Assembly: GCA_002430735.1 (NCBI GenBank)
Contig: DJCV01000013.1
Location: 33,460 to 97,459, forward strand
Origin: Candidatus Woesebacteria bacterium UBA5941
Lineage (GTDB): Bacteria > Patescibacteriota > Microgenomatia > UBA8517
Reading direction: 5' to 3'
Length of the DNA stretch: 64,000 nucleotides
Position numbers and translations under genes: made by a program. The notes under the pieces were generated by a model. That model had not been told where the DNA came from and made no database searches. It was given only the letters and a program-made list of their open reading frames with translations. The first letter of the stretch is position 1; every line of letters starts with the position of its first letter. Positions 7,919 through 63,855 of the stretch are shown here, piece by piece.

Positions 7919-8219
7919 TTCCCCACTTGACGGGCAGTTTTGTAATGATTTATATTTTTACTCAGAAGAGCTCTTGCTTAAATTTAAGTACTAGAAAGAG
8001 ATCTTTACTGCACTCTAGAGGCCTGGAGTAATAGTAAAAATCTTTTTGCACTTTGTCTGATGTCTGGTCTGTTGTTTGCGTTCGTTGAAATTGCGCGACA
8101 CGCCCTTTGTCTGCTTTGAGTTTGGTTAGTGGTGGAGTTCAGGAGGGCGTTGTCTGCGTTCTCATTTTCGAAACTTCGTATACAGTGAGGATGCTTCTTG
8201 TCCTTTTATGTTTGTCTTT

Positions 8220-8294
8220 TGGTGCCTTTGGAGGGAATTGAACCCCCATCGTACCCTTAGGACGGGTCCGCTCTATCCGTTGAGCTACAAAGGC
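8220..8294 (-). tRNA. tRNA-Arg, anticodon CCT, with encoded CCA.
   Basis: The reverse complement reads GCCTTTGTAGCTCAACGGATAGAGCGGACCCGTCCTAAGGGTACGATGGGGGTTCAATTCCCTCCAAAGGCACCA. The acceptor is GCCTTTG/CAAAGGC, the T-loop is TTCAATT, and the anticodon loop GTCCTAA gives CCT. One G-A mismatch sits at the top of the anticodon stem. Confidence 0.75.
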
Positions 8295-8372
8295 GAACGC
8301 TTTGCGTTCCTATTCTACCATTTCTACCGCAACAGTTGCGTCTATGCGCTACAATTAATGTTCACGCTAAGG

Positions 8373-10558: not shown

Positions 10559-10614
10559 ACTCTATATTATAACAAGAGCGGGCTTTAGAAGCTCGTATAT
10601 GATACAAATATCTC

Positions 10615-27100: not shown

Positions 27101-27335
27101 TGCGCGAGGGGTAACGCTTGCTCTCAATGCACTCCCGAACGCGGGTGATTTAGGAACGTTTGCTTCAACAACCGAAGTTATGAGAGAAGGGTGGTTTATC
27201 GAAAACACGGCGAATGCTCTTTTGAACGAACAAAATATGGTTCAAATGCGTATTAGAACAACTGCTTCTACGCTCTTAGGCCCTGCATATTTTATGATTG
27301 ATGCAGGGTTTGTAGCTTTAAGGTACGCTGAATAA
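24171..27335 (+). CDS. Large secreted repeat protein (1054 aa). It has a signal peptide and four beta-rich modules of about 160 aa of two alternating types.
   Basis: The signal peptide is 'KKKSVFAVLLVIVFMVSSMG'. Type-A modules carry 'YEIQIRDF..W' and 'YDGYFSNGS..PVS.P.S.FV'. Type-B modules carry 'NEYNDTTTDD.TT...SGID.YLSF.N' and 'YISGNE.R.RF'. It is dense in N-x-S/T sequons. Confidence 0.7.
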   Translation: MNMNKKKSVFAVLLVIVFMVSSMGLPQLVLFQSLQKPLPKTLERAPEAKAENAYISATASVTTGIQTNHHSYTQIADTFDWRILTTASGLDATVTFSNVALNSANVLYVNYNGSASSASLTYEIQIRDFTAGTWRTINPHATTLANVTDQAAGLLYQPTAAVAGMGQIAIYDGYFSNGSNSPVSIPLSDFVNDSNEVQIRFLSATVTPNLEMRIDYLSVEPAIENMKYASSMTTAAGTVSNEYNDTTTDDNTTNLSIAATASGIDTYLSFTNMPTPYTGANVILVEYSGNDDASLSDYSIQVRDFTNGQWDTLNGTVLNSATDTTHYFATSTAQAVTDYISGNEIRIRFVSTDTSGTLNIDFARVTIGSVMTNTGFYIDEISRGSVSSGSETNMQTIDTTSAASSWVLSTSASDVTATTQYPGDCNAATNNCVGVNLQLPVTVPSNTMVTGVHTMFRYNTSSANIDMEFGIRNVMNGNMAVTTAVADETSLQSMRRELSYPMPPQVGTDPLVTVPVYEPEYYVNTINDAINFYARSAASSASGTLTLDFVFVSIRYLGPYKSVSNRWVPTGATITNGTNNASNFRYANRDDSNYYSVTPSGSGTDYYLSFSNVEIPTNANKIIIDTRARSSAASQTYEIYLYDFVNTTWREVTPHSTNYTSDGTLSTEELVQVEVYDGYFSNASDAPVSTPISNFVSSSQMRVRYVMASTTNRLEIDWVNVEIANDPVYFAADSTITNGTITNEYNDTTTDDATTSYTITNSSGIDFYLSFKNVLTPPTGADTAYLHVSSHMTAGAGSYTISLYNFNTTSWVPFNGTVLTHTSDRTDYYFLNISNWAHYISGNEMRVRFNSASAGGTIVVDYAKLALGSVTNSTVGQTIDLGGTYVNSYSETATLDTSNFVALENSWGIRSHPNTQSAEALEAPASIALTVNYPLTVPTNVYPSGIIWAMKGSSNATTISPTVSFTNTKIGTRVATNARGVTLALNALPNAGDLGTFASTTEVMREGWFIENTANALLNEQNMVQMRIRTTASTLLGPAYFMIDAGFVALRYAE

Positions 27336-30300: not shown

Positions 30301-30624
30301 AACACAAGCTTTTTATATACGTTGCTTGCCGCGAATGCTATGGCTGCGACCTCTGACACTGCAGTTTTAACCTCGACAACACAAGCCTTTCGACAGGGTT
30401 GGTTCGTAGAACCACTAGCAAATTTATGGGATAGCGTTGATAACAGATTGAAATTTAGACTTGCGACTACAACAGGACTTGTGAATGCAGAGTGGGATTT
30501 GAGCGTGGACTTTGTGTTTTTGTCGTATCGATGGGTACCATTTGAGATAACTCCTAACCCCGAGCAACAAATGCGCGGAGGAACCTTTTTCTTTGGTGGT
30601 GATGAGCAGAAGAAGTCATTTTGA
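27346..30624 (+). CDS. Paralogue of the preceding secreted repeat protein (1092 aa) with the same A-B-spacer-A-B-C-terminus architecture.
   Basis: The signal peptide is 'KKKFILSIVLSCAMTAQS'. Conserved 'YEIQIRDYVNSTW', 'YDGYFSNGSNTPVATPLSNFV' and 'NEYNDLTTDDATTS' are present. The shared C-terminal motif is 'FRQGWF.E..AN'. Confidence 0.7.
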   Translation: MALKKKKFILSIVLSCAMTAQSWHLPYLILNEAPQTRELAQKLRPNEVSSADARFQFQPTTTTVTTAKGTTGDHLAVGAADNLYMYATSSDSGLDISFTFNNVRLWSANAIRVFYDGFASSASLTYEIQIRDYVNSTWRNINPHEATNTNTADSTLAGSLSSVAANLPGGGVIDIYDGYFSNGSNTPVATPLSNFVNSDKQMQIRFYYAGSTENLQLAIDNITIQPSQLPYYYPSSSTKNSTGAQTNEYNDLTTDDATTSMTFAGAVGGISNDFYFTNVSLPYSDANTFLIEYSGHISTSNYSIAIYDYNDAEYQTLNGAVLTNTSDATNYFALVPAANSDAMEDFIDEANNNRMNIRVTSPTTSGTQTIDFLKLVIGSTHTNTGDYIAAITRGTTSSGTEANVRNLDTSNTISQWVLNATTSEQDTESSGDCTTITGYCVAMQVTVPVTVSAQNIVQSVIQYGRFNTNNADSDPLMAVRDVAGSYDATTSSTNMTAAAMVIRETNNPMPQQVGYAALAAVPAFTPNSYVRKSYNSMSMRIYTPAAAAARTMSVDFAFMTITLVTPLEREVYRKVPSGGTITAGTETNSNYRFTQGDDAVNWDLNPNGTTGTDVYVSFNDTTIPTGSNKLIITSNHRWDVNSASYEMYIYDFVTDTWRDMSPHETNFTHDATAANYDYIQLEIFDGYFSNGSGTPVSTPLSNFVENGEVRVRMLSASTTADLDWDFAQIQFVIDPSYLPADIVTTTGTEANEYTDLFTDDNTTNLTLTPSGNAVDSYLTFANVVMPPEGFNALFVEFTGWKTTSGTINLNLRNFTTGSWEPIKTGASIVARATHYYVVEIGDWSNYIDSNNHMRVQITSAASATVVNLDFIQITMGMVPKADTPVTANYGAIMNGTAASLGNIDTISSTDELNGANYLTITESNATTGIPAHDTMGGKSLQVDFPFHVDPGTYPVGLIWNYRAASHTTVVVTPTIETGGFNYQSLNTSFLYTLLAANAMAATSDTAVLTSTTQAFRQGWFVEPLANLWDSVDNRLKFRLATTTGLVNAEWDLSVDFVFLSYRWVPFEITPNPEQQMRGGTFFFGGDEQKKSF

Positions 30625-33982: not shown

Positions 33983-34903
33983 ATGAAGAAATCCCTTATT
34001 ACTGTCACTACTGTGCTGTCACTTGTACTGAGCGTGCATGATATTCACGCTCAAACAGTCGTTCCTACTGCACGTCCGCGGGTCACAAGAACCGCGACTC
34101 CTACCGTGAGTCCAACTCCCTCTGAAACACCCGTTCCTACAGTCGAACCGGTTCCTACACAAAGGCCTGATATTACCCAAAGAACTGAAGAATCAGTCGG
34201 TCCGCTTGAAAAGATTTTGAAAGAAGAATCTTTAGGAGCAGTATGGAAGGCTCCACTTAAGCATGTTATCGCTCGAGCAGTTAAAAACGGAGTACCAGCA
34301 AATACTGTTGTACTGCTTCTCTTGTTGCCTGTGGTAGCTGCCTTCGTCGCAGGTGCAAGACATTTATTAGGACTTCAAGGGTTCGGGATCTTACTGCCTG
34401 CAGCGCTTGCTATTTCATTCTTAGCACTTGGCCCAATTGTTGGAATCGGCATGTTTTTAGTGATCATTGGAAGTTCAACACTTGGACGTATGTTCTTGCG
34501 TAAGATTAAGCTAAGACTACACTATTTACCTCGAATGTCCTTGCTCCTTGCATTTACAGTGCTCTGTATTTTAGGCGTGCTATTACTTGGCTCAACGATT
34601 AATGTCTCAGGTATTACCAACGTCTCAATTTTCCCCGTACTCTTTTTAGTTCTTCTCTCTGAAGACTTTATTCGTGTGCAATTAGGGAAGAGCTTCCATA
34701 CTGCCGTCAATATTACCGCTCAAACACTCTTGCTCGCGCTTGTTTCATACTTCTTCCTAACACTTTCTGAAATTCAGATGTTTGCTATTAAATATCCAGA
34801 AATCTTAATTGGGGGAGTACTTGTCATTAACATCGTATTAGGAAAGTTTTCCGGGCTCAGACTTCTTGAGTACTACCGTTTTAGAAAGTTAATTAAAAAG
34901 TAA
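33983..34903 (+). CDS. Membrane protein with a signal peptide, a Pro/Thr-rich linker and 6-7 TM helices (a '7TM' receptor-like module of the kind linked to RimK-type ligase systems).
   Basis: The signal peptide plus 'PTARPRVTRTATPTVSPTPSETPVPTVEPVPT' linker is followed by at least 6 hydrophobic helices. It lies immediately upstream of the ATP-grasp/protease/RimK genes. Confidence 0.55.
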   Translation: MKKSLITVTTVLSLVLSVHDIHAQTVVPTARPRVTRTATPTVSPTPSETPVPTVEPVPTQRPDITQRTEESVGPLEKILKEESLGAVWKAPLKHVIARAVKNGVPANTVVLLLLLPVVAAFVAGARHLLGLQGFGILLPAALAISFLALGPIVGIGMFLVIIGSSTLGRMFLRKIKLRLHYLPRMSLLLAFTVLCILGVLLLGSTINVSGITNVSIFPVLFLVLLSEDFIRVQLGKSFHTAVNITAQTLLLALVSYFFLTLSEIQMFAIKYPEILIGGVLVINIVLGKFSGLRLLEYYRFRKLIKK

Positions 34904-34913
34904 CCTTACCACT

Positions 34914-36227
34914 ATGAAACTGAATCACATCCTAGGGCTGAACGCTCGAAGCCAGCATTTTACGTTCCAAAGTAACACCCGCGAGGGGAAGCGTATTGCA
35001 AAGTCTAAAATCCTCACAGCAAAACATCTCAAAAAACTCGGAATCCCTACACCGCGCATCTATAAAAAGTTTTTTAAGCCAGAACATATCATGGATTTTG
35101 ACTGGAAGCAGCTGCCTTCAAGCTTTGCATTAAAACCAAGCAAAGGATTGGGTGGTGGGGGAATTATTGTGATCAAAAGAAAGAGTAAAGACGGAAAATT
35201 CTGGACTACAACCAATAAAGAGAAGCTCACCATAGACGATATGAAGCTCCATGTACTCGACATTTTAGAAGGAGCGTTTAGTATTGGCAGTGTTCCAGAC
35301 TCAGCTTTTATTCAAGAATATGTAGGTCGTCACAAGGCATTTACGCGATACGCGTACCGTGGAACTCCCGATATTCGCGTTATCGTGTTTAACAAAGTTC
35401 CGGTTATGGCAATGTTGCGACTTCCCACTAAAGAAAGTGGAGGAAGGGCAAATCTTCACCAAGGCGCTGTTGGAGTGGGTATCGATATCGCAACAGGGGT
35501 CACGACAAAGGCAATATGGCATGGGGAACCGATTAAATATAAGCCTGATTCAGACCGTAAGCTCACTGGAGTCAAGATTCCACAGTGGACTAAGATTCTT
35601 GAAACGGCCGCAAAATCGGCCGAAATTCCAGGACTTGGGTATATGGGCGTAGATATTGTGCTGCATCCAGAACGAGGACCAATGGTACTTGAAGTTAATA
35701 GCCAACCAGGTCTCCAGATTCAGCTTGCAAACTTAAGCGGCCTTAAAAAGCGTCTTGAGCGTGTGGATGATCTCGATGTTCAAGGGTTCGAACAAGGCGT
35801 TCGTATTGCCAAAGCGCTGTTTGCTGATAAGGAAGTGGTTGTCAGCATGAAGGCAGAAGAGGGAATTCAGACGGTAACTGCAGTACAAGAAATCACTCTC
35901 CGAGGCGAAAATAAAAAGAAAATGCAGGTTATGGCAAAACTAGATACAGGGGCATGGCGAACTTCTATTAGTCGTGATATCGCTGAAGACTTAGGATTGT
36001 TAAAGCCAGGTAACATTTTGTGGGAAAAGCGTGTGCAAAGCAGCTTAGGACTTGAACGCAGACCAATTATTCTTTTGACCTTTGTCCTTGCAGGGCGCAA
36101 AATAACCACAGATGCATCTGTGGCTCAACGAGCGTCGCTCAAATACCCAATGATTGTCGGTCGAAAGAATTTGAAAGGTTTTCTTATAGACCCAGGAATC
36201 AGGTATAATAAAAAGAATAGAGTATGA
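34914..36227 (+). CDS. Fusion of an ATP-grasp protein (alpha-L-glutamate-ligase-related, rimK_rel_E_lig-like) and a retropepsin-like clan-AA aspartic protease.
   Basis: N-terminal ATP-grasp motifs are 'FALKPSKGLGGGGIIVI', 'DIRVIVFNKVPVMAMLRLP' and 'ANLHQGAVGVGIDIATG'. The C-terminal 'KLDTGAWRTSIS' (DTGA active-site motif) and 'MIVGRKNLKGFLIDP' are typical of retropepsin-like proteases found next to RimK-related ligases. Confidence 0.7.
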   Translation: MKLNHILGLNARSQHFTFQSNTREGKRIAKSKILTAKHLKKLGIPTPRIYKKFFKPEHIMDFDWKQLPSSFALKPSKGLGGGGIIVIKRKSKDGKFWTTTNKEKLTIDDMKLHVLDILEGAFSIGSVPDSAFIQEYVGRHKAFTRYAYRGTPDIRVIVFNKVPVMAMLRLPTKESGGRANLHQGAVGVGIDIATGVTTKAIWHGEPIKYKPDSDRKLTGVKIPQWTKILETAAKSAEIPGLGYMGVDIVLHPERGPMVLEVNSQPGLQIQLANLSGLKKRLERVDDLDVQGFEQGVRIAKALFADKEVVVSMKAEEGIQTVTAVQEITLRGENKKKMQVMAKLDTGAWRTSISRDIAEDLGLLKPGNILWEKRVQSSLGLERRPIILLTFVLAGRKITTDASVAQRASLKYPMIVGRKNLKGFLIDPGIRYNKKNRV

Positions 36228-37102
36228 AAATTACCCTCCTAACAACACTCCCTAGTTTAATTGAAAACCGCCGTATTAAAGAAGAAGTTGAGGCAAGAGG
36301 AGATACCTTTGCACTTGTGGATATGAAGGAATTCTCTTATAAGGTCATAAACGATACTCTTTCAGTACCTCAAATGGATGTATTACTTGCAAGCGATGTT
36401 GTTATTGTAAGAGGAATCTTTAATGCAGTGAAATCAATTGCTTCCCTTGTTGCCTATTTAAGAGCGAAAGGTGTTCGCGTGTTCGACAATAATTTGAGCT
36501 CACACCCGTATTCTATTGATAAAGTAGTTGATGTTTTTAAGCTCGCTTTAGCTCACATCCCAACTCCAAACACTGTGTACGCAAGGTCATTTGATGAATA
36601 CCCACAGCTACTGGAACAAGTAGGGTACCCCGCTATTATCAAATCAACACGGATGGGGAAGGGAGTGGGGGTAAATAAATATGACACAAAAGAGGAGGCC
36701 GCGCAGTACATTAATGAGCTCAAATCAAACGATGCGAATGCGAAAAGTTACCTTATTCAATCATACATTCCATATGAACACGACCTTCGTGTACTTGTTA
36801 TTGGTCGCACAATGTATGCGATGAAAAGAATACCTCAATCTGGTGAATTTAGGGCGAATTTTTCGCTTGGAGGCAGTGTCGAGCCCTTCCCTTTGACGCC
36901 TGAAATTGAAGAGCTTTCGTTGAGAGCAATTACTGCCGTTGGATTAGAAATTGCAGGAGTAGATATTTTAATTGAACCGAATGGAAAAAAGTACATTCTG
37001 GAGGTAAACCACACTCCTGGATTTGAAGGTATGGAAAAAGCGCTTAACAGTAATATTGGCAGTAAGTTTTTAGAATACGTTCTAGACGCCGCTCATATAT
37101 AA
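36224..37102 (+). CDS. RimK-family ATP-grasp alpha-L-glutamate ligase.
   Basis: It has 'GYPAIIKSTRMGKGVGV', 'YLIQSYIPYEHDLRVLVIG', 'GEFRANFSLGGS', 'AGVDILIEPNGKKYILEVNHTPGF', and an ATGA overlap with the upstream gene. Confidence 0.8.
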   Translation: MKITLLTTLPSLIENRRIKEEVEARGDTFALVDMKEFSYKVINDTLSVPQMDVLLASDVVIVRGIFNAVKSIASLVAYLRAKGVRVFDNNLSSHPYSIDKVVDVFKLALAHIPTPNTVYARSFDEYPQLLEQVGYPAIIKSTRMGKGVGVNKYDTKEEAAQYINELKSNDANAKSYLIQSYIPYEHDLRVLVIGRTMYAMKRIPQSGEFRANFSLGGSVEPFPLTPEIEELSLRAITAVGLEIAGVDILIEPNGKKYILEVNHTPGFEGMEKALNSNIGSKFLEYVLDAAHI

Positions 37103-37109
37103 TACCCAT

Positions 37110-38003
37110 ATGAAAATCCTTATTGTCGGCTTAAAAACGAATCCACAGCTTTATCGCTTGCAAGATGAGGCTGTTAAAAGAGGCCATCAGATTCACGGGT
37201 GTCTGACATCGGATCTTTCAATTGAGGCCTCTCAAAACGCATTTAAACCAGCCCTTTTGGAAGAAGACATTACCAGTTTTGACGTTATTTATTTATGGGC
37301 ACTTGGGAAACGACGATGGGAATGGTGCACTGCATGTTTATGGTTACAAGAACATTATGGAACTGTTATCGTAAATCAAAAATTAATTGATCCGACATAC
37401 AATTATTTTTTAAGTCCTGCAATTGATTATTTGCGACAAAAAGAAAACAAATTATTATTTCCAAAATCTGCAATTTTATTTTCATTAAAAACTTTAAACA
37501 AAGTTATCAAAAATTTTGAATTTCCATTAGTTGTTAAACCAAGCAATGGTCGCCAAGGCCGCGGCGTTTCTAAGGTACATACATTAGCAGAACTCTATAA
37601 ATCAATTGATGCGTTAAATGAAGACGAATCCCCAGCCTTTGTGTTACGTGAATTTATCCCGAATGATGGGGATATTCGTGTGTTTACGGTGGGATATAAG
37701 GCTATTGGGGCAATGAAAAGAACCCCTAAAAAAGGTGATTTTCGCAGTAACATTAGCCAAGGTGGCAGCGGAAAAAGTTTTAGTTTAGCCAAAAACCCTG
37801 AAGTGAAGAAAATTGCAGAAAAATTAAGCAAAATCACCCGAACTGAGATTGCGGGGGTAGACATAATGATCCACAAGAAGACTAAAAAGCCATATATTTT
37901 AGAAATCAACCCCGGTCCCCAATTCACAGGATTTGAGAAGTTTACTAAAATGAATGCTGCAAAAGAGATTATCCTCTACTTTGAGAAAATCGCGAAGAAA
38001 TAA
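37110..38003 (+). CDS. RimK-family ATP-grasp ligase (second paralogue).
   Basis: It has 'FPLVVKPSNGRQGRGV', 'VLREFIPNDGDIRVFTVG', 'GDFRSNISQGGS' and 'AGVDIMIHKKTKKPYILEINPGPQF'. Confidence 0.75.
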   Translation: MKILIVGLKTNPQLYRLQDEAVKRGHQIHGCLTSDLSIEASQNAFKPALLEEDITSFDVIYLWALGKRRWEWCTACLWLQEHYGTVIVNQKLIDPTYNYFLSPAIDYLRQKENKLLFPKSAILFSLKTLNKVIKNFEFPLVVKPSNGRQGRGVSKVHTLAELYKSIDALNEDESPAFVLREFIPNDGDIRVFTVGYKAIGAMKRTPKKGDFRSNISQGGSGKSFSLAKNPEVKKIAEKLSKITRTEIAGVDIMIHKKTKKPYILEINPGPQFTGFEKFTKMNAAKEIILYFEKIAKK

Positions 38004-42833: not shown

Positions 42834-45800
42834 ATGGAGTTTGATATGAATCGAGATCCGATTCAATTCGATAGTGAGAATAAAGCCTTCACTTTAAAAG
42901 AGAAAATGAGGGCATTTAAAATGTCTCTGAGACATTCTGCTTCTCCCTCCAAAAAACCTATTGTCAGCGGCATTTTAGTAATAGCCCTTGCAATTAGTAC
43001 TGTGTTTTTAACACAGCGCGTGCAGACTCCGGTACCAGTTGCTGAGAATTCACAAGCGGCGGTTCCCGTTCCCTGGACGTATCCTCGGAAGTTAAAAGTT
43101 ATCATTCTTCGTTATTTTAACCCGTCATCCCCTGAAGCATTTCGAAGCCCTGCTAATGCACAAATTCTGACGGATAATATGCAGGGTATTCTTTTTCAAT
43201 CTTCAAAATTCAAAGGAAATCCGATTGCTACGTCCTCTGTTCAGGTTGAGGTAGCTGGTACATATGACTTCAATGGCCTTCCGCCAAACCCTACAGGTGA
43301 ATGGGAGGATGGATATCGGCAGATGGTTGAACAAATCTTGCCAGGTGAGAATAGAACTGTCTGTGATCGCATTAATGCTGAGGGAATTGACCAAGTGTGG
43401 TTTATGGGTGACCCTTCTCAACCTGGCTTTATCAAGGGTCCTGAGTTTGCAATATCAAGCAAATACATTCGTCCTGAAACACTGGCGCTTAATTATGAGT
43501 ATCAGATTTTGCCAAAGACGCTGTTTTGTGGTGGCCAGAAGAGTTTTATGGTTTTCTATTTTGATTTAAGCCGTGTCGAAGTAAGTTCACATGCAATGGG
43601 TCATTATATGGAATCTCTTTTAGGTGCGGCACAGGGATTTGAACTTTTTACTAAAGGGTACATGGGAGTTTCATATTATGGTAATGGTGTTGATGGTGAG
43701 GCGATTCCTGGAGTGAACCTGTCTGACAAGTGCGGGAGTATTCACGTCCCTCCAAATGTATCAACGATCCTGAGTACTAATCCAAACCGATATAAAGGAT
43801 ATGAGTACGGTGATCCTACTGAAGTTCAATCCAGTTGTGACAACTGGAAGCCTGATGGCTCAGGTGCGAAGTCTGCCGTGAGTGCGGCAACTTGGACGAA
43901 TAGCAACAACCTTATTGGTAGCCAGGAATTGCGATATCACACATGGTGGATGCGGAATTTGCCAAATATGAATAATGGGCTCACCTATAACCAGATTCCA
44001 CTTCCGAATTGGTGGGATTTTATGGTTGATACTGATGAAACAATCGCATTTTATCTCAACAATACGTATTATATGAATCCAGATCTCTTCTTTGCAGTTA
44101 ACACTTCAGCGTGTGCTTCTACGACAAATGATACGTATATTACGTGTTCCTTTAATCCATCTGGGGTGTTGGGAGCAGCGACTGAATCTACTGAGAAAGA
44201 TTCTGAATTGTCACCTGCAGTATTGCAATCATCTGCTGCAGAATATGGAAAAATGATCTTAGTGACTGTTGGGTATTCTCCAAGCGCGGCAAACGCTTCT
44301 GCTGCCGTAGAGGTTGCCAGTTATTGCGGTCTTCCGCTCACTAAAGTGAATGCCACCCCATCGAGTGGTGGTGGCATGAAAACAGAGATGTTTTACATTA
44401 TCAATCCCGTAGGTACAAATTGTCAGGCGTATTTACAGTTTACGAGAGCTCCTGGAGAACGAATCGTGTCAGTCAGTGAATTTAATAATGTTGCCACAAC
44501 CGGAACCGTTTCAACTGGAACGACAATAACCGGTTCAACAAGTACTACCTATACTATTAACCCGACCTTCGTATCACTTAACTTAACAAGCACAAAAGAT
44601 ACCTTACCATTGTGTACCTACGCTCAGTATTCAGAACAGACAACTCCTCCAAATACAAATGCGGTAACTACAACAGGAAAAACACGCCAATTATGGAAAT
44701 ATGAACATACTCGAGTGTTAGGCCCTAATGGAGAGCCGAATCCAAATGGACCAATTGCCAATGTGTGGGGCGGTTTGGTTGGTGGCACTCAGAGAACTGC
44801 TGATGGGATGCAAACCGTGACATGGACGTTTGGGAAAACAATGCCGTGGTCAGCGACATGCGCAAACTTTAAAGTAAAGCCGTTTACTACGCCACCAACT
44901 ACCCCTCCTGTCACCCCTCCACCGCCAACGCCTGCTCCGATTCCGTCAGTTACCTTAAAGGTAAACGGCGCAGATAATGTAACAATTCCATATAACAAAT
45001 CTGTGTCACTTTCGTGGACTTCATCAAATGTCACCAGTTGTACTGCGAGTAACGGTTGGACGGGAACAAAAGCAGTGTCTGGTTTTGAGACAACAGCATT
45101 ACTTACTGCTAATAAGACTTATACGATCAATTGCACCGGTTCATTTGGTAGTGTGAGTGATACTGTGAACGTCACTGTAACGAGAGTGCCTGTTGTTGAT
45201 TTGAAAATTAATGGAAGTGATACCTCCGTAACACTTGAAAAAGGAATTGCACCGACTCTTGCATGGACTCAAACAGGAGCAACGAGCTGTACTGCAAGTG
45301 GTGGATGGACTGGGACAAAAGCGGTTGCTGGCGGTTATGAAAAGGGGGCCGTTCTTGGAAATAATGCAACCTATACCTTAACGTGTACAAATGCGTCGGG
45401 AAGTGCGAGTGATACAGTGTCCGTGGTTGCAGCAGCAACAACTGCAAAAACGGGTTATTTAGCTCAATATTTCAGTGACACTAATTTCCAAAAGCTGGGT
45501 TCACAGAGTGTTATCAGTTCTATTAATTTTGATTGGGGAACGACTGGTTTACCATATCCTGGTGGACCGTCAAACTACTATTCATCGCGATATACAGCAC
45601 AAATTACTCCATCTGTAACTGGAACATATACCTTTATTACGACTTCTGATGATGGGGTACGTCTGTACGTAGACGACGTACCTGTTATTTATGATTGGAT
45701 TTATCATGGAAGAGCTATATCGACAGGCACGATTGCATTAACGGCAGGGAAGCAATACGATTTCGTACTCGAACATGCTGAATCAACAGGTGGTGCCACC

Positions 45801-47159
45801 ATGATTTTCCAAGCAGGAATTGGCACTTCACCAGCGGCATTGAACCCAAAAGCCGTCGCATTAAATTTGGGCAATAATGGGGGAGGCTTAACAGCTGAAT
45901 ATTTCGGAACTGATTCATTCACGAATGTAATTGCAACCACTCGAGAACCGCTTCTTGATTCACTGTGGACCACTGTTCCGACGTCCCAGTTGCCACGGAC
46001 ATATAACTCTGCTCGATATTCTGGAACTATTACTCCAAAGGTCAGTGCGACCTATACGTTTGCTATCCCTCAAGGGGTGAGAATGTGGATTAACAACGTT
46101 GAAAAGACAGCATCTCCGACTCAGGCGATGACAGCAAACACTGCATATAACATTCGGTTTGAGACGAAACTGGGTGAATATATGTACTTTTACGCCCGTT
46201 GGAAGTATGGAACTCAGCCATACACGGCTCTTGATTTTCGATTCTTACGACCACTCGTGACAACCCAGACACAGCAACCGTCACCTCCTGTGTCTGCTCC
46301 TTCAAGACAAGGGATAACGGGAACATATTTTGATAAAAGAGATTTCACTGGGAATTCAGTGTCCCGAATCGACCCGTATATCCAGTTTTATTGGTCAGGT
46401 GCCGTGCCAATTGAGACAATTCCAACGAAAGACTTTTCGGTGCGATGGACTGGGTCACTTGTTGTTCCAACTGCCGGCGCGTATACCTTCTACACAGAGG
46501 CTGACGATGGGATAAGAGTGTTTGTAGATGGGCAAAAAGTAATTGATAAATGGACATGGGAATCACACTCTGGGAACGAGCAATCTTCCAATGCTATAAA
46601 CCTGTCCGCCGGAGACCATTCCTTGGTGGTTGAGTACAATCAAGGCAGTGGAGGTTCAAAGGCCATTCTTCGATGGAGTGGTCCAAATATTACAAAGCGG
46701 GTTATTCAAACTGAAAATCTAAAAGCCGAAAACGCGCTTGTTTCAGGTGTGCGAGCAAGTTACTTTAACAACGAATCATTCTCAGGAACGAGTATCGATA
46801 AGACAGACCCCTCCATTAACTTTACTTGGAATACTGACGCTCCTACTACAGGTGTAAACGCAAATAATTTTTCTGTTCGATGGACTGGTGTTGTGAATGT
46901 TACAGATCAAGGTAGTTATACCTTTTACACAGAGGCTGACGATGGGATGAAAATATGGATCGACGACCAGCTCGTTCTGGACTACTGGTGGTGGCAGAGC
47001 CATTATGGCGCTGAGAAGGCTTCAAACGCGATCACTTTGAGTCCTGGCACCCATACGGTAAAGGTTGAAGCGCATGATGCCAGTGGAGGTTCAAAGGCGA
47101 TTCTTCGATGGAGCGGTCCAAATATCCCAAAGCAAGTCGTTCCACTGTATTTGAATTGA
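42834..47159 (+). CDS. Large secreted protein (1441 aa). It has an N-terminal domain of unknown function, a Pro/Thr linker, two Ig-like domains and four C-terminal PA14 domains.
   Basis: It has a signal/TM 'IVSGILVIALAISTVFL' and the linker 'PPTTPPVTPPPPTPAPIP'. The two Ig-like modules of about 80 aa carry 'SCTAS.GWTGTKAV'. The PA14 signatures 'GITGTYFDKRDFTG...FSVRWTG...YTFYTEADDG(I/M)(R/K)(V/I)(F/W)(V/I)D' occur four times. Confidence 0.8.
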   Translation: MEFDMNRDPIQFDSENKAFTLKEKMRAFKMSLRHSASPSKKPIVSGILVIALAISTVFLTQRVQTPVPVAENSQAAVPVPWTYPRKLKVIILRYFNPSSPEAFRSPANAQILTDNMQGILFQSSKFKGNPIATSSVQVEVAGTYDFNGLPPNPTGEWEDGYRQMVEQILPGENRTVCDRINAEGIDQVWFMGDPSQPGFIKGPEFAISSKYIRPETLALNYEYQILPKTLFCGGQKSFMVFYFDLSRVEVSSHAMGHYMESLLGAAQGFELFTKGYMGVSYYGNGVDGEAIPGVNLSDKCGSIHVPPNVSTILSTNPNRYKGYEYGDPTEVQSSCDNWKPDGSGAKSAVSAATWTNSNNLIGSQELRYHTWWMRNLPNMNNGLTYNQIPLPNWWDFMVDTDETIAFYLNNTYYMNPDLFFAVNTSACASTTNDTYITCSFNPSGVLGAATESTEKDSELSPAVLQSSAAEYGKMILVTVGYSPSAANASAAVEVASYCGLPLTKVNATPSSGGGMKTEMFYIINPVGTNCQAYLQFTRAPGERIVSVSEFNNVATTGTVSTGTTITGSTSTTYTINPTFVSLNLTSTKDTLPLCTYAQYSEQTTPPNTNAVTTTGKTRQLWKYEHTRVLGPNGEPNPNGPIANVWGGLVGGTQRTADGMQTVTWTFGKTMPWSATCANFKVKPFTTPPTTPPVTPPPPTPAPIPSVTLKVNGADNVTIPYNKSVSLSWTSSNVTSCTASNGWTGTKAVSGFETTALLTANKTYTINCTGSFGSVSDTVNVTVTRVPVVDLKINGSDTSVTLEKGIAPTLAWTQTGATSCTASGGWTGTKAVAGGYEKGAVLGNNATYTLTCTNASGSASDTVSVVAAATTAKTGYLAQYFSDTNFQKLGSQSVISSINFDWGTTGLPYPGGPSNYYSSRYTAQITPSVTGTYTFITTSDDGVRLYVDDVPVIYDWIYHGRAISTGTIALTAGKQYDFVLEHAESTGGATMIFQAGIGTSPAALNPKAVALNLGNNGGGLTAEYFGTDSFTNVIATTREPLLDSLWTTVPTSQLPRTYNSARYSGTITPKVSATYTFAIPQGVRMWINNVEKTASPTQAMTANTAYNIRFETKLGEYMYFYARWKYGTQPYTALDFRFLRPLVTTQTQQPSPPVSAPSRQGITGTYFDKRDFTGNSVSRIDPYIQFYWSGAVPIETIPTKDFSVRWTGSLVVPTAGAYTFYTEADDGIRVFVDGQKVIDKWTWESHSGNEQSSNAINLSAGDHSLVVEYNQGSGGSKAILRWSGPNITKRVIQTENLKAENALVSGVRASYFNNESFSGTSIDKTDPSINFTWNTDAPTTGVNANNFSVRWTGVVNVTDQGSYTFYTEADDGMKIWIDDQLVLDYWWWQSHYGAEKASNAITLSPGTHTVKVEAHDASGGSKAILRWSGPNIPKQVVPLYLN

Positions 47160-56086: not shown

Positions 56087-56455
56087 ATGAATCTTCTTTT
56101 GATTGCGCACATCGGTGGAGCAATTGCCATTTCATTTGCGATATTCGTGTCTCTCTGGTCATTACCTAAGAGTAAACAGACATTGCATAAGCAGTTATTT
56201 GTATCGCTAGGAATTGGGTCAATGATACAAACAATAACGGGATCATTACTTGCTGTGTCGAGCGAGGGCACAATTGCGAGTTATTGTGCAAAGATGGGGC
56301 TGTATCTTTCTGCAATTTTTGTAACTGAGCTACTCCTTCTGCGAAAACTGCAAGACAGCTCTTCCCTCGAATCTACAAAACGTTTGTTTGTGTATATCAC
56401 CATAAATACCGTTTTAGTATTCGTAACAGTGGTATCCCTTACCTACTACGCATGA
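56087..56455 (+). CDS. Hypothetical membrane protein.
   Basis: The 122-aa ORF has 4 predicted TM helices. Confidence 0.4.
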   Translation: MNLLLIAHIGGAIAISFAIFVSLWSLPKSKQTLHKQLFVSLGIGSMIQTITGSLLAVSSEGTIASYCAKMGLYLSAIFVTELLLLRKLQDSSSLESTKRLFVYITINTVLVFVTVVSLTYYA

Positions 56456-56991
56456 ATCAACCTATTGAAGTAGCTACATTTGCGGGTGGATGTTTCTGGT
56501 GCACTGAGGCTATTTTTGAGCGACTAAAGGGCGTTAAGTCAGTACTTCCAGGATATTCTGGTGGAACGGTTAGTAATCCAACATATGAAGCTGTTTGCAC
56601 CGGCACCACAGGTCATGCTGAAGCAATACAGGTGGTTTTTGATCCAACGCTCATATCGTATGAACGGCTTTTATATGTTTTCTTTAAAACACACGACCCG
56701 ACAACTCTTAATCAGCAAGGTGCTGACCATGGCACTCAATACCGCAGTGCTATTTTTTATCACTCCGAGGAACAAAAAAAACTCGCTGAGAATCTTGTGG
56801 AGAAATTAACAAAAGAGAAGATTTATACAAATAGGATCGTGACTGAAATTGTTCCATTTGAGAAGTTTTTTGAAGCAGAGGATTATCACAAGCATTTTTA
56901 TGAACGAAATAAAAACAATGGATATTGCCAACTTGTCATTAACCCGAAGCTTCAGAAGCTAGCGCACGAGTTTATTGATGAACTAAAGTAA
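56452..56991 (+). CDS. msrA: Peptide methionine sulfoxide reductase MsrA.
   Basis: The active-site motif is 'ATFAGGCFWCTEA', followed by 'GHAEAIQVVFDP'. Confidence 0.9.
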   Translation: MNQPIEVATFAGGCFWCTEAIFERLKGVKSVLPGYSGGTVSNPTYEAVCTGTTGHAEAIQVVFDPTLISYERLLYVFFKTHDPTTLNQQGADHGTQYRSAIFYHSEEQKKLAENLVEKLTKEKIYTNRIVTEIVPFEKFFEAEDYHKHFYERNKNNGYCQLVINPKLQKLAHEFIDELK

Positions 56992-60874: not shown

Positions 60875-61501
60875 TTATTTAAGGAACTGCAACGTTTGAA
60901 AAATAGCATCCACTTCTTTTTGATACCCAACTTCTTCTGGATCAGCTACAAGGCGACTAATACTGACTGCATACGGAGAATTTGAATCCTTTTGTAAAAC
61001 GGTATAGGTCGATTCTCCTAATGATCGAATTGTATACTCATATCCGCTGTGTGCTCCGACAGTAATTGGCGTTTTGTCCTTTACCAGTTCACTCGTTCCG
61101 CTCACTTTAATTTCAGCGATGCGAGCGTCGATTACTTGTGCTAAAGGCATTCCCTTCAATTCAATCGGTTCAAAAACCATAATGACGCCATCGTACATTT
61201 CCGTTTGTCCTCGTTGTGTCGCACCTTTTTTGGTAATACGTATATACTGACCGTTGCCCTGCAGGTCGAGTACATAGTCGTTTGGGTATAACATGCTAAA
61301 AATACCTTTTGAATCACTGTAGCTGCTGCCACCTTGCTGCAATTTCTTGACGAGTTCATTTTCAGGTTCCGTTGAAAGAGGAGATGAAACAGGGGACGGG
61401 GCGAAGGTTACCATTGGGTCGTGCGCGACTGACGCGCGATTAATTCCATATGCCGCGATAGAGATAAGAATAATTGCTGAACCAACAAATGCGAGTTTCA
61501 T
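60875..61501 (-). CDS. Hypothetical secreted protein.
   Basis: The 208-aa ORF has a signal peptide 'MKLAFVGSAIILISIAAYG'. Confidence 0.4.
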   Translation of the reverse strand: MKLAFVGSAIILISIAAYGINRASVAHDPMVTFAPSPVSSPLSTEPENELVKKLQQGGSSYSDSKGIFSMLYPNDYVLDLQGNGQYIRITKKGATQRGQTEMYDGVIMVFEPIELKGMPLAQVIDARIAEIKVSGTSELVKDKTPITVGAHSGYEYTIRSLGESTYTVLQKDSNSPYAVSISRLVADPEEVGYQKEVDAIFQTLQFLK

Positions 61502-61561: not shown

Positions 61562-63160
61562 TTATTTCTTCGCTTTCTTTGAAGCACTGCCAATCGCTTC
61601 CGTAATCGTTCTGAAGCCGTTCTTCTTAAGTAGATCAGGGAGTTCTGTATTAATATTCGCAACAAGCTGTGGGCCTTCAAAAATCATTCCTGTTATGAGT
61701 TGTACCAAACTTGCGCCACGGGTAATTTTTTCATATGCATCGTGTGCATTAAAAACCCCTCCACACCCAATGATCGTAAGACGCTTCTTGTAATGCTTGT
61801 AAGTTAAGGAAATTAATTCATTCGAGCGATCAAATGTTGGCTTGCCGCTAAAATTTCCTTTCGGGAATTTTGAAACTTCTGATTGATTCAGCGCGGGGTG
61901 ACTCCGATCCTTTTGCAAGTTTCCAAAAATGACTCCTGTCACTGAATGTTTGCTAATTACCTCTAGCATGGACAGCACCTCTTTATTTGATTTCTCGATA
62001 GGCATTTTTATAAAAATAGGTCGAGTAATGTGTAGACTGTCAATTGCGGTTAAGAGTCGATTAAGATTTTGTGGCGGATAAAAACTCACATTTGTAAGTA
62101 AGTTTGGACAACTAATATTTAATTCATAATACGAGTGGTTGCCATTTGATCGCTCAAAAAGGATAAATGCGCGAACAATGTCATCAATACTTTTTTTAAC
62201 CGTATTAACACTCGGTGTATTTGTTTTTCCAATCGAAATCCCGACCGGAATTGGAAACACGAGGCCTTTTAATCGATCTATTGTTTTTGTCGCTCCAAGG
62301 TTTTTAAACCCTTTATTCACCATTAATGACTTTGATTTTGGAAGTCTGCCAAGCATTGGTGAGGGGTTTCCTTTATATGGTCGGTTGGTAATAGTTCCAA
62401 CGGTTTGAAATCCAAAGCCAATACCATCAAGTGTCTGCGTGAGTCGTGCCTCATAGTCAAACCCAGCAGCAAGTCCGATTGGGTTTTTAAAGTACACACC
62501 TGCAATCGATTGAGAAAGCGATTTGTCTTCTCTGACAAATAAGAAATGGGCAAGTTTTTTGAAGAGCCAGAGGCTGCCCACGCGTTCTCCAAAGTGGACC
62601 ATATTCGTGTGTACTCTCTCGGGGGGTAGTAAAAAGAGTATTTGTTTAAGTACATATACATAGAGAATGCGAATAATGAATTGTGTGAGCTGTTTCCGCT
62701 CTTTGGCAAAGTAAAACAGGATACCGAGAAAAAGAAGCGTGCTTGTTGCAGCTGACACCATGCAATACACACATAACGCATGAATAACAAAAAGCTGTAG
62801 GTATACAAAATAAAGCGAACTCACAAATCCAATACAGGACATTACAATCGCTAGAAACACGAAGGATCGTTTGTGGAGGAGAATAACTGTTAAAAGCACA
62901 AAGGAAAGTATCGTATAGTGTACAAATCCAATGAGTGCAAGGGGAATACCAATGACTACTGAGTAACTACTTCTCAAAACGGTCCCACAATCTCCCAGTA
63001 AGGAATTGGCGCTGCATGGCGGTATTGTTTTTTGAAAGTGTTCGTATGCTAAATACCCTGAGTCAAATAACCCAAGGAGCGCACACAGGAGTAGCAGTAC
63101 TGGCCAGTACTTTTTCATTACTTTTTCGTTTTGCAACAATCGCAGTTGCAGCCACAACAA
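61562..63160 (-). CDS. Fusion protein: an N-terminal VKOR (vitamin K epoxide reductase-like) membrane domain joined to a C-terminal dihydroorotate dehydrogenase.
   Basis: The VKOR loop Cys pair 'PPCSANSLLGDCG' and TM CXXC 'CVYC' are present. The DHODH motifs are 'FKNPIGLAAGFD', 'GFGFQTVGTIT', 'GKTNTP' and 'LNISCPN'. Confidence 0.75.
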   Translation of the reverse strand: MLWLQLRLLQNEKVMKKYWPVLLLLCALLGLFDSGYLAYEHFQKTIPPCSANSLLGDCGTVLRSSYSVVIGIPLALIGFVHYTILSFVLLTVILLHKRSFVFLAIVMSCIGFVSSLYFVYLQLFVIHALCVYCMVSAATSTLLFLGILFYFAKERKQLTQFIIRILYVYVLKQILFLLPPERVHTNMVHFGERVGSLWLFKKLAHFLFVREDKSLSQSIAGVYFKNPIGLAAGFDYEARLTQTLDGIGFGFQTVGTITNRPYKGNPSPMLGRLPKSKSLMVNKGFKNLGATKTIDRLKGLVFPIPVGISIGKTNTPSVNTVKKSIDDIVRAFILFERSNGNHSYYELNISCPNLLTNVSFYPPQNLNRLLTAIDSLHITRPIFIKMPIEKSNKEVLSMLEVISKHSVTGVIFGNLQKDRSHPALNQSEVSKFPKGNFSGKPTFDRSNELISLTYKHYKKRLTIIGCGGVFNAHDAYEKITRGASLVQLITGMIFEGPQLVANINTELPDLLKKNGFRTITEAIGSASKKAKK

Positions 63161-63231
63161 TTATTATTCATTGAAATTCACCACCTTTATTGAAGAATAC
63201 CCAATGAGAGGTGTCGTGTATGTGACGAATA

Positions 63232-63855
63232 TCACTTCGCGATCTCTTTCTGCAAATCTGAGAGTTTGAGTATTGTCACTCTATTGTTTTGCGTTGTAAG
63301 AAGACCTGCTTTCTTTAACGTTTGTAAGTTACGGCTTACCGTTTCTCTCTGTAATCCAAGCCATGAGGCAATCTGTTCTTGGGAAGTTGTGATTGCAACC
63401 GTATCTTCTCCCGTATTTTCTTTTTCTGCGAAATATACCAGTAAACGCACAATTTTTTGATATGCATCGCTAAAAAGTATTGTTTCTATCCGAGTTGTAA
63501 GTCCCATCATTGCTTTTGAGAAACTGACTGCTAAGTTAAATAAAACGTCTGGTTGCTCGTGAAGAAACAAAAGGACATCAGAAAGAGGAGCTTTAAAGGC
63601 TGTTACTTCTTCTTGTGTCTGAAAGTAGTACGTGTTTTGCCTTTCGCTCAGCGGAATCATGAGCGGAAAGTATGCACCAGCTTTGAAGATGGTCAGTGTT
63701 ACTTCCTCACCCTCAGGTGAGAGCGCATACATTCTGACTAGACCTCTTTCTATGTAGTAAATATCTTCAATCGAGGTACTGGGTTGTATGATAATTTGTC
63801 CCTTTTTGAACGTACAAGGGGTGTGTTTTGAAAAAAAAGTGGCTGGGGTGCTCAT
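63232..63855 (-). CDS. Crp/Fnr-family transcriptional regulator.
   Basis: It has an N-terminal cNMP-binding beta-barrel and a C-terminal HTH 'QEQIASWLGLQRETVSRNLQTLKKAGLL'. Confidence 0.8.
   Translation of the reverse strand: MSTPATFFSKHTPCTFKKGQIIIQPSTSIEDIYYIERGLVRMYALSPEGEEVTLTIFKAGAYFPLMIPLSERQNTYYFQTQEEVTAFKAPLSDVLLFLHEQPDVLFNLAVSFSKAMMGLTTRIETILFSDAYQKIVRLLVYFAEKENTGEDTVAITTSQEQIASWLGLQRETVSRNLQTLKKAGLLTTQNNRVTILKLSDLQKEIAK

Follow-up and report, generated by a model that had tools for sequence, protein, structure and literature searches.

A gene in the 64-kb window analysed here (the whole stretch of DNA under study) encodes a VKOR-like membrane domain joined to a dihydroorotate dehydrogenase (DHODH, PyrD), and the question that it raises is whether these two redox enzymes act on each other or simply share a polypeptide. 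VKOR and class-2 DHODH both normally reduce quinone and, therefore, the two halves would be competitors for an oxidant and not complements.

The VKOR-DHODH fusion occupies one continuous open reading frame (61562..63160 (-); 532 aa when counted from TTG). The ATG at 63118 (518 aa, MKKYWPV...) is almost certainly the true start, judging by database homologues that begin there, which would place the gene at 61562..63118 (-) with its stop codon at 61562-61564. The protein is identical to the database protein P0001 and is present on at least three independently assembled metagenome contigs. A Pfam search found VKOR (PF07884) at residues 22-145 (E 5e-25, 88.6 bits against a gathering threshold of 27.5) and DHO_dh at residues 215-511 (E 7.7e-48), while the AF2 model of the fusion protein (pLDDT 92, pTM 0.89) contains four TM helices and an unbroken linker helix. 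The linker (residues 137-152, FAKERKQLTQFIIRIL; 62663..62710 (-)) is a positively charged helix leading from TM4 to DHODH helix alpha-1; in the model an uninterrupted helix at residues 138-161 (pLDDT ~95) spans the domain junction, and the mean net charge of the linker across the fused family is +1.5. In the homologue P0136, two extra hydrophobic, apparently TM, segments are inserted at the linker; as they are even in number, the topology would stay unchanged.

Both domains were detected by Pfam in all 120 listed relatives (53-62% identity, the identical P0001 aside), and the NISCPN motif, the C-x-[YF]-C motif and the loop Cys pair are kept in 120/120; those relatives that carry names are Microgenomates-group CPR bacteria, and on these hits and on its AtpD relatives the host of the fusion is placed in the Microgenomates group of the CPR as well. 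Among 26 diverse fused members, C35, C44, S50, C116, C119, H170, R258, N334, C337, N339, K371 and N400 are all invariant. The joining of VKOR and PyrD in one frame, as proposed in the first-pass annotation, was thus confirmed by the single ORF, the two Pfam domains and the same layout in the 120 listed relatives, and the fusion is genuine and conserved. Two adjacent genes merged by frameshift, mis-assembly or an ORF-calling error might be suspected from two related loci, L093 and L119, where the halves appear as separate or interrupted ORFs, but the overlapping or broken frames there are what sequencing errors typically make of a fused gene. Given the identical gene on at least three contigs, the same architecture in all 120 listed clusters and a confidently modelled unbroken helix across the junction, the chance of such an artefact is negligible and it was ruled out; the frameshift parting the domains, which the first-pass annotation had asked to be checked, is not there. 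The architecture is apparently undescribed so far, since no VKOR-DHODH fusion was mentioned in a literature search that included VKOR surveys and that covered subscription journals incompletely.

The VKOR half (residues 1-136; 62711..63118 (-)) has its four TM helices at residues 5-29, 60-81, 84-112 and 117-136 in the AF2 model (pLDDT ~90), and it aligns with the Synechococcus VKOR structures 4nv2, 4nv5 and 3kp9. Its annotation as a VKOR-like domain of four to five TM helices holds for the VKOR identity and for four helices, but not for a fifth. The loop Cys pair and the CXXC that had been noticed from the sequence were both located and are conserved in the listed relatives. The extracytoplasmic pair C35...C44 ('CSANSLLGDC', 62987-63016 (-)) is followed by the conserved Ser50 (62969-62971 (-)), and the active site C116-V-Y-C119 ('CVYC', 62762-62773 (-)), located at the outer end of TM4, lines up with Synechococcus VKOR 'CMYC'. 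The five catalytic residues of the VKOR half do not vary in the sampled fused proteins, even where overall identity falls to 38%, whereas the TM sequence around them drifts freely. The charge distribution points to an N-in/C-in topology, with positive cytoplasmic segments and a Cys loop that is not positive, and the DHODH that follows as the C-terminal domain is predicted to be cytoplasmic from the AF2 model and the charges.

The VKOR half is closest to stand-alone CPR VKORs, whose genes lie immediately downstream of DsbA genes, and in the P0074 locus a DsbA gene and the start of the fusion share 4 nt. A DsbA-like partner gene was found neither in the 64-kb window nor in 15 fused loci with DNA. 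The VKOR-MdbA pairing in CPR has already been published (PMC6744442). With other bacterial VKORs (CPR DsbA-VKOR operons, A. oris VKOR/MdbA, Synechococcus VKOR-Trx), the present protein has in common the 4-TM core, the loop Cys pair, the Ser and the TM4 CXXC, whereas its partner is a cytoplasmic flavoenzyme and not an extracytoplasmic Trx-fold domain. The VKOR-thioredoxin fusions (Synechococcus 3KP9/4NV5, plant LTO1 type) possess a fifth TM helix and an extracytoplasmic Trx-like domain, and VKOR-DHODH has neither. In giant viruses, VKOR is genetically linked to an epoxidase-desaturase, for which a shared vitamin-K cofactor was proposed (PMC13486548, PNAS 2026). These modules are alike in that VKOR is linked genetically to a second redox enzyme; however, the viral partner adjoins VKOR unfused and uses up its hydroquinone, while the DHODH here is fused and itself reduces quinone.

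The DHODH half is class 2 by fold, N-terminal tunnel domain and family scores, and departs from that class in its base residue. It consists of a class-2 N-terminal helical (quinone-tunnel) domain (residues 153-200; 62519..62662 (-)), with helices at residues 166-182 and 184-194 in the AF2 model, and of the alpha/beta-barrel catalytic domain (residues 201-518; 61565..62518 (-)) recognized by Pfam as DHO_dh. The invariant His170 of the tunnel domain aligns with human His56 and Arg258 with human Arg136, both being retained. Class-2 NCBIfam models align starting at model positions 3-11 and the class-2 cut-offs are passed (TIGR01036, 238.8 against 200; NF003652, 279.5 against 267), whereas the class-1 models match weakly and far below their cut-offs (PRK02506, 63 bits against 301; TIGR01037, 69 against 270). 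Likewise, class 1 was matched in the PDB at E ~1e-10 versus 3e-46 for class 2, and the DHODH half superposes on full-length M. tuberculosis class-2 DHODH (8ofw) with a TM of 0.96 and an rmsd of 1.7 A. On the alignment to the DHODH classes that had been suggested, the first-pass label of a class-1-like catalytic Cys is right for the base residue but misleading for the enzyme as a whole.

Compared with class 2 DHODHs (E. coli PyrD, M. tuberculosis, human), the fold, the two-helix tunnel domain and the FMN/orotate Asn and Lys are in common; N334, N339, K371 and N400 of the FMN/orotate site do not vary in any of the three groups compared (fused, unfused, Ser-type). The differences are a Cys in place of the Ser base, an Asn in the fusion where class 2 has the Lys of 'GKNK', and the membrane attachment, which is by amphipathic helices or a single TM helix in class 2 and by a 4-TM enzyme anchor in the fusion. 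Class 1A enzymes (L. lactis PyrDA, trypanosomatid DHODH) also have the Cys base in N-x-S-C-P-N, but they are soluble enzymes in which fumarate is used at the substrate site and the N-terminal tunnel domain is missing.

The catalytic motif N334-I-S-C337-P-N339 ('NISCPN') lies at 62102-62119 (-), with the Cys337 codon at 62108-62110. By phmmer it matches 'NVSSPN' of M. tuberculosis and human class-2 DHODH column for column, so the Cys stands in for the catalytic-base Ser. The placement of the Cys at the catalytic-base position was borne out in this way, and the expectation of a Ser in class 2 agrees with the canonical sequences compared (Ser in 23/23). The Cys base is present in 135/135 CPR/DPANN/Flavobacterial Cys-type sequences, in 116/116 unfused CPR/DPANN-type sequences compared and in a respiring Flavobacteriaceae subclade. 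On these comparisons it is a trait of CPR/DPANN class-2-like DHODHs generally, which are mostly unfused. The Cys as a mark of the fusion was ruled out, because unfused CPR/DPANN forms and some Flavobacteriaceae share it.

Two acceptor-side positions within 61694..61921 (-) are also altered, namely Leu401 (human Thr285; 61916-61918) and Ile475 (human Tyr356; 61694-61696). Position 401 is Leu in 14/14 fused forms, Leu (90) or Thr (21) in unfused Cys-type forms and Thr in 22/23 Ser-type forms, while position 475 is Ile in 14/14 fused forms, Ile (58), Tyr (22) or Val (18) in unfused Cys-type forms and Tyr in 22/23 Ser-type forms. The Tyr-to-Ile and Thr-to-Leu replacements, fixed in the fused forms compared, hint at an atypical acceptor. 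A related case is known from fungi, where class-II DHODs with a Cys base (S. japonicus, D. bruxellensis, A. robustus Ura9) were linked to respiration-independent function (PMC8520639, Bouwknegt et al. 2021). The likeness lies in a Cys on a class-2 scaffold in organisms or conditions without respiration; the fungal enzymes differ in having no VKOR fusion and, with quinone-site residues reported as otherwise conserved (PMC8520639), in the Tyr-to-Ile and Thr-to-Leu changes that the fusion protein adds to the Cys. ArUra9 has lost the N-terminal domain and its acceptor is free FAD/FMN, not decylubiquinone, and fungal respiration-independence neither requires the Cys nor follows from it alone (PMC8520639).

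The collection scans recovered at least 12 new fused loci with DNA, and the numbers of fused and unfused genomes are not quantitative. Near-complete genomes with the fusion are represented by the ~942-kb contig of the present organism and by ENA ERZ25039515 contig_30883 (1.23 Mb) and ERZ25039513 contig_12787 (995 kb). Among around 55 unfused CPR/DPANN pyrD loci, a VKOR within 6-10 kb was encountered in L118 alone, in which pyrD and then VKOR follow as separate genes in an order reversed relative to the fusion. Among the matches listed, unfused DHODHs reach 54-58% identity to the present one, like the fused ones. Two sister DHODHs, P0152 and P0232, have a different membrane domain as fusion partner, PAP2 and a multi-TM domain, respectively. 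In an NJ tree, which is star-like and unsupported and was used for the gross pattern and not for gains or losses of the fusion, Cys and Ser forms split grossly and fused and unfused forms interleave.

The gene directly upstream on the same strand (63232..63855 (-)) encodes a Crp/Fnr-family regulator (cNMP_binding and HTH_Crp_2 by Pfam at the identical locus), which has a single Cys and thus no FNR-type Fe-S motif. The order Crp-DsbA-fusion is found in the P0074 locus, and Crp is not general (1/15 fused loci with DNA). Between the regulator and the fusion, a possible Cys-rich leader ORF, MNNNCCGCNCDCCKTKK (63118..63171 (-)), has a stop codon overlapping the fusion ATG (TAATG) and a strong SD (AAAGGTGGTGA) 6 nt upstream. 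It was not found upstream of 14 other fused genes; this putative ORF would therefore be lineage-specific, and its role as a conserved regulatory element was ruled out. No gene neighbourhood is consistent across the fused loci: NUDIX adjoins four of 15 fused genes and PAP2 adjoins two of 15, and DsbA occurs in one locus. There are no quinone or oxidase genes among the neighbours of the fused loci, and no pyr genes in the 64-kb window or the Pfam-annotated flanks of the fused loci. Methionine-sulfoxide reductase genes were observed close to the fusion gene in two loci.

At roughly even odds (about 0.5), the fusion is a bifunctional integral-membrane protein in which two intact enzymes share a type of cofactor and pass no electrons to each other. 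This reading builds on what was observed, namely the domain layout, the conserved residues, the predicted topology, the distribution among lineages and the link of the VKOR lineage to DsbA. The VKOR half would re-oxidise an extracytoplasmic thiol-disulfide oxidoreductase of the DsbA/MdbA type through C35/C44 and then C116-x-x-C119, delivering the electrons to a membrane quinone close to the outer leaflet. TM4 would run on via the positive helix into helix alpha-1 and hold the class-2-type DHODH at the cytoplasmic face, where dihydroorotate would be oxidised to orotate on FMN with Cys337 as base. The electrons might then leave through the N-terminal tunnel, and the lipophilic acceptor that receives them would most likely be the quinone pool that also serves VKOR. 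We infer both activities as well as the identity of the acceptor and the route of quinol re-oxidation. The quinone itself is probably scavenged together with host lipids, because CPR bacteria do not make quinones. The benefit of the fusion might be a permanent membrane anchor for the DHODH and the co-expression of two quinone-dependent housekeeping oxidations; the PAP2 and multi-TM fusions of sister DHODHs make membrane anchoring plausible. According to published reports, CPR lineages have neither a complete electron transport chain nor the genes for quinone biosynthesis (PMC7507113; PMC8407418) and, therefore, the quinone source and its re-oxidation weigh against this explanation. At the level of sequence, the remodelled acceptor tunnel and the missing DsbA and pyr neighbours would also count against it, while the rigid, confidently predicted linker, together with two active sites that are both strictly kept, would be compatible with a functional partnership as well.

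Such a partnership could take the form of an obligate intramolecular relay, in which a captive quinone would move back and forth between the DHODH and VKOR sites, with one half-reaction driving the other. Dihydroorotate oxidation in the cytoplasm might, for example, feed a VKOR running in reverse, with electrons passing out to extracytoplasmic disulfides, and an organism without a respiratory chain would thereby gain an electron outlet for pyrimidine synthesis. The conserved fusion with both active sites strictly kept, the rigid linker in a high-pTM model and an acceptor tunnel remodelled in all fused forms compared speak for a relay, as do L118 as one independent pyrD/VKOR adjacency, the methionine-sulfoxide reductase genes near the fusion gene at two loci and the usefulness of an internal sink to a host lineage without an ETC and quinone synthesis. 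However, one of the enzymes would need to run backwards, because both normally reduce quinone, and the transfers from quinol to disulfide and from quinol to orotate are both uphill by textbook potentials. The active sites are predicted to lie on opposite membrane faces (AF2 model, charges), most CPR DHODHs and VKORs are unfused and unlinked, Leu401 and Ile475 predominate among unfused relatives as well, and the PAP2-DHODH fusion shows a redox rationale to be unnecessary. A relay is accordingly doubtful, and a self-contained transmembrane redox device, with a tightly held quinone cycling between the DHODH tunnel and the outward VKOR site in stoichiometric coupling, is less probable still; in its variants, VKOR would be reversed as an electron exporter or the DHODH would re-oxidise the VKOR quinol. 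The direct coupling of dihydroorotate oxidation to the VKOR module, on which the first-pass annotation had built, is not supported, as both halves reduce quinone, their sites are on predicted opposite faces and the halves exist alone. Its further suggestion of an adaptation to a missing respiratory chain is in keeping with the reported absence of an ETC from the host lineage. The Cys, for its part, is not tied to the fusion.

Alternatively, the DHODH could use a non-quinone oxidant (free flavin as in ArUra9, or another soluble or lipophilic oxidant), with VKOR as a functionally unrelated anchor that carries on its own disulfide chemistry with any quinone at hand. Fungal Cys-type DHODs that work without respiration and the use of free FAD/FMN by ArUra9 (PMC8520639) favour this, and so do the coincidence of the Cys-type clade with ETC-less CPR/DPANN lineages and the replacement of a conserved tunnel Tyr and an active-site Thr. 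Nevertheless, the tunnel domain, His170 and Arg258 are fully kept, while ArUra9 is without that domain; the curated thresholds of quinone-dependent families are still passed, the fungal Cys does not by itself decide respiration-independence (PMC8520639), and respiring Flavobacteriaceae carry the Cys too. On balance this option is unlikely, although it stands somewhat ahead of the relay. Very improbable is a VKOR domain that is degenerate and redox-dead and serves as a membrane tether for the DHODH. Eukaryotic class-2 DHODHs do carry an N-terminal TM anchor, sister DHODHs are joined to PAP2 or a multi-TM domain, and there is no DsbA partner in the window or most fused loci; against this, the five VKOR catalytic residues remain invariant down to 38% identity amid drifting TM surroundings, and one fused gene (P0074) shows translational coupling to a DsbA gene.

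If, as the preferred reading of two intact enzymes has it, the halves are merely independent, the protein would be a tidy case, of modest importance, of two enzymes fused on account of a shared cofactor and of membrane anchoring. If the transmembrane redox device were true, pyrimidine synthesis would be tied to the redox balance of the envelope with no need for a quinone pool or a terminal oxidase, and the Cys base, Tyr-to-Ile and Thr-to-Leu would be adaptations to that mode. The Cys-for-Ser observation made in fungi is widened here to the majority state in two superphyla, CPR and DPANN, with further acceptor-site changes. Moreover, CPR and DPANN, reported to be without respiratory chains and quinone synthesis, widely retain VKOR and class-2-type DHODH, both of which need quinone on present understanding, and this poses a physiological puzzle across a large share of microbial diversity. 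With both enzymes in one polypeptide, the fusion offers a compact experimental handle on quinone scavenging, on the real acceptor of the DHODH and on cross-talk between the two.

The VKOR-DHODH gene occupies one uninterrupted frame (61562-63160, minus strand), in which a Pfam search assigns residues 22-145 to VKOR (E 5e-25) and residues 215-511 to DHO_dh (E 7.7e-48), numbered from the internal ATG at 63118 at which the 100% identical database copy P0001 (518 aa) starts. No frameshift lies between the halves, and the fusion of VKOR with PyrD described in the first-pass annotation is confirmed, with its motifs at their reported positions. P0001 was recovered on three or more metagenome contigs that had been assembled independently, and the chance that the fusion is an artefact is practically negligible. 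Among the matches listed for the full-length protein, all 120 relatives (53-62% identity, identical P0001 aside) contain both domains, those with names being Candidatus Levybacteria and Roizmanbacteria, and their public annotation label is only "quinone-dependent dihydroorotate dehydrogenase". Two close relatives (L093, 5962-7393; L119, 1308-2935) lie in overlapping or interrupted ORFs, which are probably sequencing frameshifts, natural splitting being the alternative. A search of the available literature, two surveys of the VKOR family included, found no description of this architecture.

The host is taken to be a Microgenomates-group CPR bacterium because of the fusion relatives, the named relatives of the ATP synthase beta subunit (Woesebacteria, Microgenomates) and the window content, which includes ATP synthase, iPGM, MreB, UppS, ribosomal genes and giant surface-type ORFs. 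In its other genes the window resembles a small CPR genome, and no respiratory, quinone or pyr genes were found in the 64 kb outside the fusion. The very large ORFs (2827, 1054, 1092 and 1441 aa; 13939-22422, 24171-27335, 27346-30624 and 42834-47159, plus strand), the first carrying several CxDC/CxxC motifs, are guessed to encode CPR surface or adhesion proteins. A plus-strand cluster at 33983-38003, comprising a 7TM_transglut membrane protein, an ATPgrasp_ST protein with a Zn-protease-like tail and two RimK-type ATP-grasp ligases, resembles a system for peptide ligation or modification. The 5' end of a 387-aa ORF (8208-9371, plus) overlaps tRNA-Arg(CCT) (8220-8294, minus), so the ORF probably begins further downstream than listed.

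Immediately upstream of the fusion, a possible 17-codon leader ORF with seven Cys (MNNNCCGCNCDCCKTKK; 63118-63171, minus) follows 6 nt after a strong Shine-Dalgarno sequence (AAAGGTGGTGA, ~63177-63187), and its TAA overlaps the fusion ATG (TAATG), while the fusion gene has no obvious Shine-Dalgarno of its own. This ORF may encode a Cys-rich leader peptide whose translation is coupled to that of the fusion; 14 other fused genes have nothing equivalent upstream. The downstream neighbour (208 aa; 60875-61501, minus), position-conserved only in the identical contigs, has neither Cys nor a Pfam match, and its N-terminal hydrophobic segment is a probable membrane anchor. A NUDIX hydrolase gene directly precedes the fusion in four of 15 fused loci (L004 7274-7690; L087 3-305; L093 5546-5959; L084 9523-9951), abutting it on the same strand in three, and on the window side one lies ~4 kb upstream, past the window end (L001 5353-5820). 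Methionine sulfoxide reductase genes were also seen ~3-5 kb from the fusion gene, namely MsrA (PMSR, GGCFWC; window 56452-56991, plus) and, at the locus of the fused relative P0074, SelR/MsrB (14508-14927), which may be coincidence or a loose redox-repair neighbourhood.

The DHODH half, whose catalytic Cys had been called class-1-like, is of the class-2 type. It scores above the cut-offs of the quinone-dependent NCBIfam models (TIGR01036, 238.8 bits vs 200; NF003652, 279.5 vs 267) and far under those of the class-1 models, and its best solved relatives are all class 2, led by the Mycobacterium tuberculosis enzyme 8ofw (3e-46), with class 1A reaching only ~1e-10. Alignments to class-2 structures start in the class-2-specific N-terminal helices, and in an AlphaFold2 model built from a 26-member family alignment (pLDDT 92.1, pTM 0.89) the DHODH part can be superposed on the full-length M. 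tuberculosis enzyme (TM score 0.96, rmsd 1.7 Å). The fusion thus shares the fold and N-terminal helices of that enzyme and differs by its Cys base: since NISCPN falls exactly on NVSSPN of solved class-2 enzymes, Cys337 stands in place of the catalytic-base Ser, as the first reading had placed it.

In a search of 1.84 billion cluster representatives with only the DHODH half, the matches listed in order of similarity mix fused with unfused proteins; N-x-S-C-P-N also occurred in unfused proteins of ~350-400 aa, up to 54% identical, and Ser forms appeared only under ~37% identity. Among the matches listed from species-representative genomes, Cys-type enzymes come from many CPR groups (Saccharibacteria, Paceibacterota, Andersenbacteria, Parcubacteria, Berkelbacteria) and from DPANN archaea (Pace-, Woese- and Nanoarchaeota). 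A rough NJ tree sets a large Cys-type CPR/DPANN radiation apart from the canonical Ser-type group, with VKOR-fused forms mainly in one region, intermixed with unfused ones. By these sequence comparisons, the Cys base characterises a clade and is not tied to the fusion. NVSCPN or NISCPN is also present in otherwise canonical class-2 DHODHs of Fodinibius and a Flavobacteriaceae-type Bacteroidota subclade (Olleya, Aquimarina, Algibacter, Kordia, Vicingus; loci L050, L054, L058, L061, L068, L072, L075 and L080, with pyrD at ~10001-11040 in most, and L025), apparently a separate, independent natural switch. A Cys-for-Ser state has been published in fungi, in which it is correlated with pyrimidine synthesis independent of respiration (PMC8520639).

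The VKOR half is intact by sequence. C35, C44, S50, C116 and C119 are invariant in 26 diverse fused members, matching motifs occur in 120 of 120 relatives among the matches listed, and the core aligns to crystal structures of Synechococcus VKOR, in which CMYC is the counterpart of CVYC. Where four to five TM segments had been proposed, the model has four (5-29, 60-81, 84-112, 117-136) and no fifth, because a short helix of positive charge (FAKERKQ...) joins TM4 without a break to DHODH helix alpha-1. Family mean net charges are positive at the N-terminus (+1.4), loop 2 (+1.9) and linker (+1.5), against -0.35 for the Cys loop and +0.2 for loop 3; an N-in/C-in topology is therefore predicted, which indicates an outward-facing VKOR active site and a DHODH on the cytoplasmic side of the membrane, the arrangement of other bacteria. 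The P0136 linker contains an additional pair of hydrophobic and apparently TM segments, an even number that would keep this topology. At the P0074 locus, a DsbA gene, itself preceded by a Crp-family regulator, overlaps the fused gene's start by 4 nt, mirroring the DsbA-VKOR operons of the closest relatives of the VKOR half, stand-alone CPR VKORs (133-169 aa) directly downstream of DsbA/Thioredoxin_4 genes. CPR are enriched in MdbA-like oxidoreductases, which often adjoin VKOR and whose proposed role is pilin folding (PMC6744442). A Crp-family regulator is also directly upstream of the fusion in the window; no DsbA-like gene was found in the 64-kb window or in the 15 fused loci for which DNA was available, so such a partner would be encoded elsewhere.

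The acceptor side of the DHODH half bears on whether it still reduces quinone. The position of human Thr285 is Leu in 14 of 14 fused and 90 of 116 unfused Cys-type sequences and Thr in 22 of 23 Ser-type ones; that of Tyr356, in the tunnel beside FMN, is Ile in all 14 fused, Tyr in 22 of 23 Ser-type, and Ile (58), Tyr (22) or Val (18) in unfused Cys-type sequences. The GKNK Lys is Asn. The counterparts of His56 and Arg136 are kept, as is every Asn and Lys of the orotate/FMN site. The fusion thus has Leu/Ile in contrast to the canonical class-2 Thr/Tyr, and the pattern points to an intact substrate site and a tunnel domain that is present, with a remodelled inner end. Five tabulated Flavobacteriaceae-type Cys sequences keep Thr, with Tyr (four) or Phe (one) at the second position. 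A non-quinone acceptor is considered unlikely.

Direct redox coupling, as the first-pass annotation proposed, meets several lines of contrary evidence, and a true intramolecular relay between the halves is judged a little less likely still. Canonical VKOR and class-2 DHODH each reduce quinone and form no redox loop unless one runs backwards, which by textbook potentials is uphill for either, and their active sites lie on opposite membrane faces by the predicted topology. Each half also occurs alone in related organisms, as stand-alone DsbA-linked VKORs and as unfused pyrD, with no VKOR within 6-10 kb in at least ~55 CPR/DPANN loci. The exception, metagenome contig L118 (326-4077), would fit a relay: ArsR regulator, unfused Cys-type pyrD, stand-alone VKOR, TauE/SafE exporter, FmdE-like and small CPTC thioredoxin-like genes, the only side-by-side pair among the loci listed, in reverse order to the fusion. 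Strictly kept active sites and a rigid, confidently modelled junction would also fit it, and an internal redox arrangement would be attractive because CPR reportedly have neither quinone synthesis nor complete ETCs (PMC7507113, PMC8407418). However, other membrane domains have fused with sister Cys-type CPR DHODHs, namely an N-terminal PAP2 phosphatase (P0152, 550 aa) and an unannotated multi-TM domain (P0232, 667 aa), which shows that a membrane anchor is reason enough for such a fusion. P0134 (497 aa) instead carries a C-terminal CTP_transf_like cytidylyltransferase-like domain, possibly FMN/FAD-related, and PAP2 genes adjoin VKOR-DHODH genes at the P0045, P0074 and P0072 loci. That the VKOR half is a dead membrane anchor is highly improbable. 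We favour, with a probability of about 0.5, a bifunctional protein whose VKOR half would retain its DsbA/MdbA-reoxidising role and double as the membrane anchor of a class-2-type, Cys-base DHODH, both halves using the same, probably scavenged, lipophilic quinone.

The Flavobacteriaceae-type genera are mostly typically aerobic and partly cultured, and their Cys switch could be tested in culturable organisms. The fusion itself is of most value as a single-protein way into the "quinone paradox" of CPR and DPANN.
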